From a virus (taxonomy: Duplodnaviria; Heunggongvirae; Uroviricota; Caudoviricetes): a DNA stretch of 2,978 nt. A program made the position numbers and the translations under genes. The notes under the pieces were generated by a model that worked only from the letters and a program-made list of their open reading frames with translations, had not been told where the DNA came from and made no database searches. The first letter of the stretch is position 1. The number at the start of each line of letters is the position of its first letter. Of this stretch, positions 1 through 2,978 are shown piece by piece. The stretch lies in the IMG/VR virus record IMGVR_UViG_2667527792_000007. One strand, given 5' to 3'.

Positions 1-915
1 GTGGCGCAGCTTAATGGTGTGGGTGAGAATCACTGGAGCGCGGCAATTTTAAAACGTGCGCTGGCGAATGACTCGGCATGGCACCGTTTAAGTGAGAAAG
101 AGTTCGCCCATCTGCAAACGTTGTTACCCAAACCACCGGCACATCATCCGCATTATGCGTTTCGCTTTATCGATCTATTTGCCGGAATTGGCGGCATCCG
201 TCGCGGTTTTGAATCGATTGGTGGACAGTGCGTGTTTACCAGCGAATGGAACAAACATGCGGTACGCACTTATAAAGCCAACCATTATTGCGACCCGGCG
301 ACGCATCATTTTAATGAGGATATCCGCGACATCACCCTCAGCCATCAAGAAGGCGTGAGTGATGAGGCGGCGGCGGAACATATTCGTCAACACATTCCTG
401 AACACGATGTTTTACTGGCCGGTTTCCCTTGTCAGCCATTTTCGCTGGCTGGCGTATCGAAAAAGAACTCGCTCGGGCGGGCGCACGGTTTTGCCTGCGA
501 TACCCAGGGCACGCTGTTCTTTGATGTGGTGCGCATTATCGACGCGCGTCGTCCGGCGATGTTTGTGCTCGAAAACGTCAAAAACCTGAAAAGTCACGAC
601 CAGGGTAAAACGTTCCGCATCATCATGCAGACGCTGGACGAACTGGGCTATGACGTGGCTGATGCAGAAGATAACGGGCCGGACGATCCGAAAATCATCG
701 ACGGCAAACATTTTCTGCCGCAGCACCGTGAACGCATCGTGCTGGTGGGTTTTCGTCGCGATCTGAATCTGAAAGCCGATTTTACTCTGCGTGATATCAG
801 CAAATGTTTCCCTGCACAGCGAGTGACGCTGGCGCAGCTGCTGGACCCGATGGTCGAGGCGAAATATATCCTGACGAAAGTTTCCTGTAATGGAAGATGG
901 GAAATATGTCGATAA
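1..915 (+). CDS. dcm: DNA-cytosine methyltransferase Dcm, N-terminal/catalytic fragment; Dcm homology ends at ~nt 876, followed by a 12-codon foreign tail ([12 protein letters not shown]) and TAA at 913-915. Probably a non-functional, pseudogene-like remnant.
   Basis: ORF 1..915 translation closely matches E. coli Dcm as recalled. Motif [11 protein letters not shown] at nt 166-195, motif [10 protein letters not shown] with catalytic Cys codon TGT at 430-432, motif VI ENV at 571-579. The GTG at nt 1 encodes an internal Val (..[13 protein letters not shown]..), so the true start lies upstream of the window. The remaining ~150-160 C-terminal residues of Dcm (472 aa as recalled) are absent. Confidence 0.9.
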
Positions 916-982
916 ATGGGCAATACGAACGACGGCAATGATTGCCAGAGAACTTGGTTAACAGAACAACAAAGCTGCCTGA
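878..982 (+). pseudogene. ral: 3' remnant of lambda ral (restriction alleviation protein), lacking start and N-terminal ~33 codons; in-frame TAA at 959-961 before the expected stop at 980-982
   Basis: Frame 2 from nt 881 reads [32 protein letters not shown], matching the C-terminus of lambda Ral as recalled (..[36 protein letters not shown], 66 aa). Upstream in this frame there is a stop at 872-874 and no Ral N-terminus. Position relative to ea10 matches lambda gene order. Confidence 0.6.
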
Positions 983-1026
983 TAGTGGCCTTTATTTTTG
1001 GCATAAATAACAGAATAAACACTGCA

Positions 1027-1058
1027 CTGTGTATTCATTCCAACGAGTGAATACACGG
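1027..1058. repeat. Inverted repeat in the ral-ea10 spacer: 9-bp perfect arms GTGTATTCA (1029-1037) and TGAATACAC (1048-1056), 10-nt loop; function unknown
   Basis: Read directly from the sequence. No T-run follows on the + strand, so it is not a classical intrinsic terminator in that direction. Confidence 0.5.
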
Positions 1059-1118
1059 AGCAATGTCGCTCGTAACTAAACAGGAGCCGACTTGTTCTGA
1101 TTATTGGAAATCTTCTTT

Positions 1119-1145
1119 GCCCTCCAGTGTGAGGGCGATTTTTTA
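1119..1145 (+). terminator. Intrinsic terminator-like hairpin upstream of ea10 (lambda tL2-cluster-like): GCCCTC-CAGTGT-GAGGGC followed by GATTTTTTAT
   Basis: Perfect 6-bp GC-rich stem (1119-1124 / 1131-1136), 6-nt loop, then a T6 run at 1139-1144. Location matches the terminator cluster between ral and ea10 as recalled. Confidence 0.6.
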
Positions 1146-1150
1146 TCTAT

Positions 1151-1155
1151 GAGGA
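1151..1155 (+). promoter_or_regulatory. Shine-Dalgarno (GAGGA) for ea10
   Basis: GAGGA lies 9 nt upstream of the ATG at 1165. Confidence 0.6.
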
Positions 1156-1164
1156 TATGAACAG

Positions 1165-1533
1165 ATGTCAAACATCAAAAAATACATCATTGATTACGAC
1201 TGGAAAGCATCAATAGAAATTGAAATCGACCATGACGTAATGACAGAGGAAAAACTTCACCAGATTAATAATTTCTGGTCAGACTCTGAATACCGACTCA
1301 ATAAACACGGCTCTGTATTAAATGCTGTATTAATCATGCTGGCGCAACATGCTCTGCTTATAGCAATTTCAAGCGACTTAAATGCATATGGTGTTGTGTG
1401 TGAGTTCGACTGGAATGATGGAAATGGTCAGGAAGGATGGCCTCCAATGGATGGTAGCGAAGGAATAAGAATTACCGATATCGATACATCAGGAATATTT
1501 GATTCAGATGATATGACTATCAAAGCCGCCTGA
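1165..1533 (+). CDS. ea10: Lambda Ea10 protein (early-left operon protein, annotated ssb-like; function poorly defined), 122 aa
   Basis: ORF 1165..1533 (MSNIKKYIIDYDWKASIEIEIDHD...MTIKAA) matches lambda Ea10 as recalled in length and sequence. SD GAGGA upstream; the 72-nt spacer to cIII matches lambda. Confidence 0.9.
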   Translation: MSNIKKYIIDYDWKASIEIEIDHDVMTEEKLHQINNFWSDSEYRLNKHGSVLNAVLIMLAQHALLIAISSDLNAYGVVCEFDWNDGNGQEGWPPMDGSEGIRITDIDTSGIFDSDDMTIKAA

Positions 1534-1556
1534 GCGCGGCGTTACCGCATACCAAT

Positions 1557-1580
1557 AACGCTTCACTCGAGGCGTTTTTC
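1557..1580 (+). terminator. Intrinsic terminator-like hairpin between ea10 and cIII (lambda tL3-like)
   Basis: 7-bp stem ACGCUUC (1558-1564) / GAGGCGU (1569-1575) with one G-U pair, 4-nt loop ACUC, followed by UUUU (1576-1579). Confidence 0.5.
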
Positions 1581-1593
1581 GTTATGTATAAAT

Positions 1594-1599
1594 AAGGAG
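1594..1599 (+). promoter_or_regulatory. Shine-Dalgarno (AAGGAG) of the cIII translation initiation region
   Basis: AAGGAG lies 6 nt upstream of the cIII ATG at 1606. Confidence 0.65.
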
Positions 1600-1605
1600 C
1601 ACACC

Positions 1606-1770
1606 ATGCAATATGCCATTGCAGGGTGGCCTGTTGCTGGCTGCCCTTCCGAATCTTTACTTGAACGAATCACCCGTAAATTACGTGACGGATGGAAACG
1701 CCTTATCGACATACTTAATCAGCCAGGAGTCCCAAAAAATGGATCAAACACTTATGGCTATCCAGACTAA
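1606..1770 (+). CDS. cIII: Lambda CIII, 54 aa (inhibitor of host FtsH/HflB protease, stabilises CII)
   Basis: Not in the ORF track because it is short. Manual translation from ATG 1606 gives [54 protein letters not shown], stop TAA 1768-1770, matching lambda CIII as recalled. Strong SD upstream. Confidence 0.9.
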   Translation: MQYAIAGWPVAGCPSESLLERITRKLRDGWKRLIDILNQPGVPKNGSNTYGYPD

Positions 1771-1882
1771 ATTCACTATCGCCACTTTTATTGGCGATGA
1801 AAAGATGTTTCGTGAGGCCGTCGACGCTTATAAAAAATGGATATTAATACTGAAACTGAGATCAAGCAAAAGCATTCACTAA
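1739..1882 (+). CDS. kil: Lambda Kil, 47 aa (host-killing protein that blocks FtsZ-dependent cell division)
   Basis: ATG at 1739 in the frame of ORF 1613..1882 gives [54 protein letters not shown] at 1725-1729. Overlaps cIII by 32 nt and gam by 46 nt, as in lambda. Confidence 0.85.
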
Positions 1883-2253
1883 CCCCCTTTCCTGTTTTCC
1901 TAATCAGCCCGGCATTTCGCGGGCGATATTTTCACAGCTATTTCAGGAGTTCAGCCATGAACGCTTATTACATTCAGGATCGTCTTGAGGCTCAGAGCTG
2001 GACGCGTCACTACCAGCAGCTCGCCCGTGAAGAGAAAGAGGCAGAACTGGCAGACGACATGGAAAAAAGCCTGCCCCAGCACCTGTTTGAATCGCTATGC
2101 ATCGATCATTTGCAACGCCACGGGGCCAGCAAAAAAGCCATTACCCGTGCGTTTGATGACGATGTTGAGTTTCAGGAGCGCATGGCAGAACACATCCGGT
2201 ACATGGTTGAAACCATTGCTCACCACCAGGTTGATATTGATTCAGAGGTATAA
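1837..2253 (+). CDS. gam: Lambda Gam (RecBCD inhibitor); long form 138 aa from ATG 1837, short GamS form (98 aa) from internal ATG 1957
   Basis: ORF 1837..2253 ([15 protein letters not shown]...[15 protein letters not shown]...[10 protein letters not shown]) matches lambda Gam as recalled. Internal SD AGGAG at 1945-1949 precedes ATG 1957-1959. The 5-nt gap to bet matches lambda. Confidence 0.95.
1945..1949 (+). promoter_or_regulatory. Internal Shine-Dalgarno (AGGAG) for the GamS start at 1957
   Basis: AGGAG lies 7 nt upstream of the in-frame ATG at 1957-1959 (MNAYYIQ...). Confidence 0.6.
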
Positions 2254-2258
2254 AACGG

Positions 2259-2978
2259 ATGAGTACAGCACTCGCAACGCTGGCTGGGAAGCTGGCTGAA
2301 CGTGTCGGCATGGATTCTGTCGACCCACAGGAACTGATCACCACTCTTCGCCAGACGGCATTTAAAGGTGATGCCAGCGATGCGCAGTTCATCGCATTGT
2401 TGATCGTCGCCAACCAGTACGGCCTTAATCCGTGGACGAAAGAAATTTACGCCTTCCCTGACAAGCAGAACGGCATCGTTCCGGTGGTGGGCGTTGATGG
2501 CTGGTCCCGTATCATCAATGAAAACCAGCAGTTTGATGGCATGGACTTTGAGCAGGACAATGAATCATGTACATGCCGGATTTACCGCAAGGACCGTAAT
2601 CATCCGATCTGCGTTACCGAGTGGATGGATGAATGCCGCCGCGAACCATTCAAAACCCGCGAAGGCAGAGAAATCACCGGACCGTGGCAGTCGCATCCCA
2701 AACGGATGTTACGGCATAAAGCCATGATTCAGTGTGCCCGTCTGGCCTTCGGATTTGCTGGTATCTATGACAAGGATGAAGCCGAGCGCATTGTCGAAAA
2801 TACTGCATACACTGCAGAACGTCAGCCGGAACGCGACATCACTCCGGTTAACGATGAAACCATGCAGGAGATTAACACTCTGCTGATCGCCCTGGATAAA
2901 ACATGGGATGACGACTTATTGCCGCTCTGTTCCCAGATATTTCGCCGCGACATTCGCGCATCCAGATCATTCTTATAG
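2259..2978 (+). CDS. bet: Lambda Bet (Red-beta single-strand annealing protein), C-terminally truncated: residues 1-235 lambda-like, then RSFL and TAG; 239 aa versus 261 aa in lambda
   Basis: ORF 2259..2978 (MSTALATLAGKLAERVGMDSVDPQELITTLRQ...QIFRRDIRAS) matches lambda Bet as recalled up to ..RDIRAS. Lambda continues SELTQAEAVKALGFLKQKAAEQKVAA, whereas the window continues RSFL then stop at 2976-2978. Confidence 0.9.
   Translation: MSTALATLAGKLAERVGMDSVDPQELITTLRQTAFKGDASDAQFIALLIVANQYGLNPWTKEIYAFPDKQNGIVPVVGVDGWSRIINENQQFDGMDFEQDNESCTCRIYRKDRNHPICVTEWMDECRREPFKTREGREITGPWQSHPKRMLRHKAMIQCARLAFGFAGIYDKDEAERIVENTAYTAERQPERDITPVNDETMQEINTLLIALDKTWDDDLLPLCSQIFRRDIRASRSFL

Follow-up and report, generated by a model that had tools for sequence, protein, structure and literature searches.

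An out-of-frame joint between a dcm fragment and the 3' part of ral in a lambda-like prophage segment, with a second joint inside bet

The window, which is the whole stretch of 2,978 nt of DNA that we analysed, consists of three parts: a piece of the host gene dcm, a piece of a lambda-like prophage and the last 16 nt. Its first codon is GTG, corresponding to codon 34 of Dcm, and its last is a stop codon. Because it starts exactly on this GTG and finishes exactly on the stop, the window looks gene-delimited. The following features are found in it.

1–876, plus strand: internal fragment of the host gene dcm, equal to nt 100–975 of the gene and codons 34–325 of the 472 of Dcm
1–915, plus strand: chimeric ORF of 292 Dcm codons, 12 extra codons and a stop
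848–867, no strand assigned: left arm of an inverted homology, native dcm sequence, ending 9 nt before the left joint
870–880, no strand assigned: left joint; the last dcm base is 876 and dcm meets phage DNA at 876/877 (three-way alignment)
877–915, plus strand: out-of-frame tail of the chimeric ORF, 12 codons with TAA at 913–915
880–2962, plus strand: 2,083 nt (~2.09 kb) from inside the early-left (pL) operon of a lambda-like prophage, without pL, nutL, N, exo, xis, int and att
881–961, plus strand: 3' fragment of ral in frame 2, codons 34–59 and TAA at 959–961, without the start codon and the N-terminal 33 codons
1117–1148, plus strand: intrinsic-terminator-like hairpin with T-run, upstream of ea10
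1165–1533, plus strand: ea10 (DUF2528), intact by ORF, annotation and Pfam
1557–1585, plus strand: intrinsic-terminator-like hairpin with T-run, 3' of ea10
1593–1651, plus strand: cIII mRNA thermoregulator element (Rfam RF01804; bit score 88.5, gathering threshold 50)
1606–1770, plus strand: cIII, intact
1739–1882, plus strand: kil, intact
1957–2253, plus strand: gam in its 98-aa form, intact
2259–2978, plus strand: bet, truncated; 235 native codons are followed by RSFL and TAG, and the final 26 residues of the 261-aa Bet are gone
2937–2956, no strand assigned: right arm of the inverted homology, native bet sequence, ending 6 nt before the right joint
2963–2978, no strand assigned: right joint and final 16 nt (CAGATCATTCTTATAG), the joint lying at 2962/2963 inside bet

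The dcm piece is identical at 876/876 positions to the dcm of E. coli E2865, O26 RM10386, O103 RM8385 and other wild strains. It differs from the dcm of K-12 MG1655 at 15 of 876 positions and from that of E. coli CUPS03 at 12 positions, and the latter differences rule out the CUPS03 lineage as its source. Motifs I (FAGIGG), IV (PCQ), VI (ENV) and VIII (QHRER; QHRERIV) are kept in the ORF 1–915. The Pfam profile PF00145 (DNA_methylase) is covered from position 1 to 194 of 324, and PF18284 is matched as well. The Dcm match stops at residue 325 of 472. It includes neither the target-recognition domain nor motifs IX and X, for which E. coli Dcm has RRLTPRECARLMGF and QFGNSVVVPV. This profile coverage agrees with the original prediction that the retained Dcm lacks its target-recognition domain and C-terminal motifs. 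A homologue search returned full-length Dcm clusters alone.

Where the upstream region is intact, annotators and gene callers call the 472-aa Dcm from ATG1. Since the window opens at codon 34 while callers otherwise take ATG1, the dcm piece may be a fragment of ~0.9 kb within a multi-piece mosaic, with an intact dcm–vsr elsewhere. The GTG34 start suggests a further, third break within ~40 nt upstream of nt 1.

The phage piece is identical over 2,083/2,083 nt (880–2962) to a lambda-like prophage that E. coli CUPS03 (NZ_CP180690) carries at its ybhC/att-lambda site. It differs from lambda (J02459) at 27 positions and is 99.4% identical to phage SfI. The gene order is ral'-ea10-cIII-kil-gam-bet', and all genes point in the same direction as dcm. 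The Ral fragment matches the Pfam profile Ral (PF11058) over positions 34–58 of 66 with an E-value of 1e-14, and it is identical to the Ral allele of CUPS03 (WP_000213971.1), for which the 59-aa form is natural. A complete Ral frame of 59–66 aa with its own start is not found in the window, the first 33 codons and the ATG being replaced by dcm. The earlier account of the ral end holds for the C-terminal part of ral; its stop has to be read differently, as it is the TAA at 959–961 of a natural 59-aa allele and not a sign of damage.

Judged by these alleles, the DNA is that of a wild E. coli and a wild lambda-like phage, not of K-12 or reference lambda. The presence of gam and bet, which are Red genes used in recombineering, might bring to mind a laboratory construct or a recombineering strain with a lambda Red cassette at dcm. 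We consider such an origin extremely improbable: the phage part equals a wild prophage and departs from reference lambda at the 27 positions, dcm departs from K-12 at 15 of 876, exo is missing and bet is truncated, and no marker, promoter, scar or vector sequence accompanies them. Engineered DNA of K-12/lambda laboratory origin was rejected on the wild alleles and the lack of exo, vector and marker.

The left joint can be placed to the base. On the dcm side the sequence reads ...ATATCCTGACG and continues with CCGG (in longer form CCGGTACTG), the phage side reads ...AAGCCTGAAGAAATGTTTCC, and the window reads ...ATATCCTGACGAAA-GTTTCC across the joint. The CCTGACG at 870–876 matches the phage CCTGAAG at 6 of 7 positions, forming an imperfect 7-nt microhomology CCTGA(C/A)G. 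The AAA at 877–879 is phage-like, and one phage base (T) is lost before G880, 3 nt past the crossover. A flank match this good, for a single register, is expected at ~0.6% of random host–phage joints (P ~0.006). No natural phage allele was found that would account for the missing T or the C at 875; CUPS03, the best-matching genome, and the best phages show both differences.

Every dcm match stops at 876, and phage similarity spans 870–2962. Using full-length dcm/Dcm and vsr/Vsr as queries, blastn and tblastn found no Dcm or Vsr similarity beyond 876–882 in any frame, and a plain frameshift in dcm is thereby ruled out. Thus, the continuation of dcm homology past about nt 880 in another frame, named originally as what would speak against a joint, is absent, while the similarity to lambda ral expected just past the joint is present both in the phage match starting at 870 and in the Pfam Ral hit. 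Base-level alignment, the ORF 1–915 and the Ral profile together confirm the central claim that dcm is broken off and that the 3' part of ral follows it in a different frame.

No IS end is observed at the left joint, where dcm directly abuts ral, and neither an att core nor int, xis or any integrase is found within the window. The joint sits in ral, a position that in the intact prophage of CUPS03 is ~5 kb away from int, and does not have the make-up of an att junction. The view that it is not an att-type prophage end was therefore correct, given its position inside ral and the lack of int, xis and att in the window. No adapter, vector or restriction-site signature is present at the joints. 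The few shared bases at the crossover, the small change beside it and the extra joint in cis are the features by which microhomology-mediated illegitimate recombination or template switching is recognised.

The phage identity breaks off at 2962 in every genome and phage record. Because it ends inside bet at this position, the phage piece is an internal fragment with novel joints at both ends and not an int-proximal prophage arm. It was originally proposed that a resident dcm had simply replaced the N/pL/cI side of the prophage; this is not established, as the phage piece measures just 2.09 kb, a second joint lies in bet and the window starts at GTG34. The joint in bet, the codon-34 start and the inverted homology described below had not been noticed in the original prediction.

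The 16-nt tail has no match of at least 10–11 nt in ~300 kb of candidate loci. It is absent from the surroundings of dcm in five strains, K-12 (10 kb) among them, from the regions within ±20–45 kb of dcm in four strains, and from the whole CUPS03 prophage with its att-lambda flanks. No match of at least 10 nt was obtained to IS1, IS26 and IS6100 in the loci examined, nor within 50 kb of sequence from the IS-rich pCP301. Nine exact matches of the tail in viral contigs were dismissed as unrelated, being absent from E. coli, and matches of 8–10 nt inside the two parents are at chance level. Two independent deletions, or one inversion, were tried as models and fail to predict the tail.

An inverted homology lies beside both joints. 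The arms 848–867 and 2937–2956 are complementary at 17 of 20 positions, with a core of 14/15, and they form the second-best inverted repeat in the window. Among 60,000 random E. coli × prophage position pairs, each searched within ±35 nt, a score of at least 12 has a probability of 1.3e-4, for a test that was post hoc. The inverted homology suggests that both joints arose in one event. Homologous recombination between the two arms was rejected, since it predicts dcm joined to antisense bet, and so was snap-back copying, which predicts GGGTCCAGCAGC after 2956; neither arrangement is observed.

We think it somewhat probable (about 0.55) that the joint is the scar of a microhomology-assisted illegitimate recombination in a wild E. 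coli, and probably one step of a multi-break event. As the sequence shows, a strand with dcm up to nt 876 was joined to the prophage ral at CCTGA(C/A)G, or switched template onto it, and one base was lost there. The promoter-less early-left operon then continues for about 2.09 kb, and at 2962 the sequence jumps a second time, into unrelated DNA. The event would have occurred in vivo. Instead of two independent deletions, it would have been a replicative template switch (MMBIR/FoSTeS-like) or the end joining of a captured fragment, and the inverted homology near both joints may have taken part in it. A multi-step microhomology-mediated event fits best because microhomology is combined with base loss, a second switch in the same orientation follows ~2 kb on, and complementary sequences lie near both joints.

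Several observations support such a scar. Both parents match at 100% up to the joints (1–876; 880–2962), which indicates a clean and recent junction without sequencing noise. The microhomology at the joint is not expected from random concatenation or blunt ligation, and the loss of one nucleotide next to a mismatch is typical of error-prone joining, as in alternative end joining in E. coli and in MMBIR. The second joint is 2.09 kb away in the same orientation, and the window holds no IS end, att core or integrase. Other points weigh against the scar. The joint and its products are seen nowhere else in the collections searched, two and perhaps three joints within 3 kb resemble a chimeric molecule, and the tail is predicted by no simple model, be it deletion, inversion, arm recombination or snap-back copying. 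Furthermore, dcm and the prophage pL operon of CUPS03 are on the same strand 1.28 Mb apart. With the phage at att-lambda a simple viable deletion cannot give the joint at this distance; either the prophage must have sat elsewhere, or a fragment must have been copied or captured.

In strain 50579417, which carries the identical dcm allele, a lambda-like remnant (emrE-ybcL-ybcM) is located between fliE and yedK, ~19 kb downstream of dcm, and the same fliE–yedK site holds integrase fragments in other strains. Prophages thus reside and decay close to dcm. The same observation, made next to the same dcm allele, agrees with stepwise decay of a lambda-like prophage near dcm, in which a deletion or inversion would have led from dcm into ral and a later, independent deletion would have run from bet outward. 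A 2-kb remnant would be left, the sole dcm would be destroyed, and the host would be Dcm-deficient and probably Vsr-deficient. Loss of dcm is tolerated (PMC4444293), and the window keeps the int-proximal side of ral, as this course of events would have it. Nevertheless, we consider stepwise decay unlikely: an inverted homology near both joints (P ~1e-4) is not expected from two independent events, the tail is not found within ±20–45 kb around dcm in four strains, the phage piece shows 0 differences in 2,083 nt, and the start at codon 34 suggests that dcm would have been cut at its 5' side too.

A more specific form of the favoured explanation is a single natural MMBIR-like event. A nascent dcm strand would have primed at the imperfect 7-nt microhomology in a nearby prophage, copied 2.09 kb and been dislodged 6 nt after synthesising the 20 nt that can pair with its own dcm part, before a further jump. 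In this detailed form the proposal is improbable. If it were true, the inverted homology would be the physical footprint of how such events end.

Both joints and their products were searched for in other sequences. The two halves are adjacent in 0 of 5,426 complete E. coli genomes, and dcm–ral adjacency is found in no phage or plasmid record. A 38-mer across the left joint and a 33-mer across the right joint are absent from the GTDB representative genomes, the JGI metagenomes and IMG/VR. None of the four possible chimeric proteins, namely Bet' (239 aa) and the Dcm fusions starting from GTG34, ATG20 and ATG1, occurs among ~15 billion public proteins. Literature searches turned up nothing relevant on a dcm–ral fusion or on prophage integration at dcm.

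A joint that is unique across these collections and ~15 billion proteins, together with two or three joints within 3 kb and pieces as short as ~0.9 and ~2.1 kb, would be in line with a chimeric molecule or contig that never existed in a cell, produced by polymerase template switching during whole-genome or PCR amplification, a chimeric long read or a mis-join. In vitro polymerase template switching also yields microhomology with a small indel, and the inverted homology could help displaced single strands to anneal or to snap back. However, the overlap of at most 7 nt is imperfect and lies far under the k-mer overlap that a de Bruijn assembler requires, the joints carry no signature of an adapter, a vector or a restriction site, and the sequence is error-free against both parents. 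Amplification chimeras mostly consist of neighbouring sequences joined in inverted orientation, whereas the pieces here are in direct orientation and their loci are 1.28 Mb apart in CUPS03. We therefore regard an artefact as possible but doubtful. A mosaic with two or three joints in a single sequence needs a read-level check before a phenotype such as Dcm deficiency is deduced from it.

By their coding content, the Dcm, Ral and Bet fragments are non-functional, and the joints make no new working gene. Dcm has lost its target-recognition domain as well as motifs IX and X and ends in a 12-codon nonsense tail, Ral lacks a start and Bet lacks its last 26 residues; the products are dead. The intact ea10, cIII, kil and gam are probably poorly expressed, because pL, nutL and N are absent and the hairpins at 1117–1148 and 1557–1585 would leave only weak read-through into these genes.

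The same features bear on the proposal of a functional or selected fusion, in which the dcm promoter would be captured for gam, bet and kil, or in which a truncated Dcm or Ral peptide would have a new restriction–modification role. The sense-to-sense orientation and the four intact genes (ea10, cIII, kil and gam) would suit it, and it is suggestive on its face that both broken genes act in DNA modification or restriction. Yet the reading frame is not kept across the joint and meets a stop 12 codons later, the Dcm part is without essential domains, no start codon precedes the Ral fragment, exo is absent and Bet is cut short. Terminator-like sites stand between the joint and the intact genes, N/nutL antitermination is missing, and the joint is conserved in no other genome searched. 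A selected fusion is accordingly very unlikely.

The Dcm-deficient host expected in the original prediction is not established; loss of Dcm is plausible only if the broken copy is the sole dcm. If the joint is real, it represents one route to losing Dcm methylation. Such a loss, even if true here, would be unremarkable, being tolerated with little phenotype; dcm mutants have no visible phenotype, and the function of vsr can go too (PMC4444293).

The window can be compared with several known systems. Dcm-deficient E. coli likewise have a dcm frame unable to make active enzyme, a loss that is tolerated and with which vsr function may go. E. coli B strains are without dcm. In K-12 derivatives, dcm-6 is a nonsense allele (PMC4444293). 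Unlike in dcm-6 and B strains, the dcm of the window is broken by a junction with phage DNA and not by a point mutation or an IS-associated deletion.

Cryptic lambda-like remnants, such as DLP12, Rac and Qin in K-12 and emrE-ybcL-ybcM, are also promoter-less partial gene blocks with non-att joints and truncated edge genes. In contrast to them, the phage piece of the window is just 2.09 kb long, is 100% identical to a live-looking prophage and is free of decay. Its neighbour is an internal fragment of a housekeeping-type gene, inverted homology lies beside both of its joints, and no other genome searched has it in this arrangement.

Short-homology illegitimate recombination, alternative end joining, MMBIR and FoSTeS share several features with the window: unrelated sequences meet at a few bases of microhomology, a mismatch or a small deletion sits at the joint, and further joints lie in cis. 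In the window the mechanism is deduced from the scar. The joint is of a well-known class, either a scar of illegitimate recombination or a chimera, and the inverted homology alone is an unexplained oddity. If the joints are real, they add another example of the scrambling of prophage and host genes by non-homologous joining. If raw reads bear them out, the inverted homology could reveal how bacterial rearrangements with several template switches begin and end.

Finally, specialised transducing phages such as lambda gal and lambda bio resemble the window in that illegitimate recombination, frequently at short homologies, has joined host to phage DNA. Their joints involve host DNA beside attB, and one att-derived end is kept. 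In the window, the host DNA comes from dcm, a gene that in CUPS03 lies 1.28 Mb away from att-lambda, and the joint lies in ral with the int-proximal side kept. The phage piece is cut again in bet, so that no packageable phage results.

Besides the dcm/ral joint at 876/877, a second novel joint is found inside bet at 2962/2963, within window 2955-2978. The identity to the phage ends there and gives way to 16 non-phage bases. The Bet product of the window therefore consists of residues 1-235, then RSFL and a stop. No exo, xis or int is present in the window. The window looks gene-delimited, since it opens exactly with GTG (nt 1-3, Dcm codon 34) and closes exactly with a stop codon (nt 2976-2978). 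A third break immediately upstream of nt 1 is likely, because the window begins at GTG34 whereas gene callers choose ATG1 as the Dcm start when the upstream region is intact.

Inverted homology is observed beside both joints, formed by native dcm sequence on one side and native bet sequence on the other:

848-867 and 2937-2956, two arms of a 20-nt inverted homology, 17/20 matching; core 14/15 with 10 exact, GGCGAAATAT

The arms stop 9 nt short of the left joint and 6 nt short of the right joint, and the probability for random position pairs is ~1.3e-4. This arrangement is not accounted for by any simple mechanism.

Several further elements lie between or across the joints:

648-1022, minus strand, antisense ORF of 124 aa crossing the left joint
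1117-1148, 1557-1585 and 1907-1934, sense strand, terminator-like hairpins with T-runs, in the interval from the left joint to kil/gam
1593-1651, Lambda_thermo (Rfam; cIII mRNA thermoregulator), intact, 88.5 bits

With N and nutL absent, the hairpins should stop read-through from upstream. The antisense ORF is chimeric by construction and probably without meaning. Ral ends at a TAA (959-961) where lambda reads AAA. The stop does not result from the rearrangement; it belongs to a natural 59-aa allele (WP_000213971.1) also carried by the prophage of E. coli CUPS03.

Prophage remnants are also found downstream of dcm in E. coli chromosomes. Strain 50579417, whose dcm allele is identical to that of the window, has a lambda-like (DLP12-type) remnant carrying emrE-ybcL-ybcM and an IS200/IS605 transposase (loci L019 39900-40876 and L020 45900-49200). 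It is located between fliE and a truncated yedK, ~19 kb downstream of dcm; other strains hold only an integrase fragment of 120-130 nt at this site. In CUPS03, the same fliE-proximal integrase-remnant site is occupied by a chromosomal multi-resistance island (locus L006 24000-49000) with mer, mph(A), sul1, aadA5, dfrA17 and catA1 together with IS1, IS26 and IS6100.

Among the database records, three 'plasmids' of ~48.5 kb, assigned to Salmonella, Stenotrophomonas and Paenibacillus (NZ_CP082339.1, NZ_CP104294.1 and NZ_CP068597.1), and a phage record labelled 'Campylobacter phage CJLB-4' (MW057783.1) show just the same match to the window as reference lambda. Mistaken deposition of lambda control DNA is the probable explanation.
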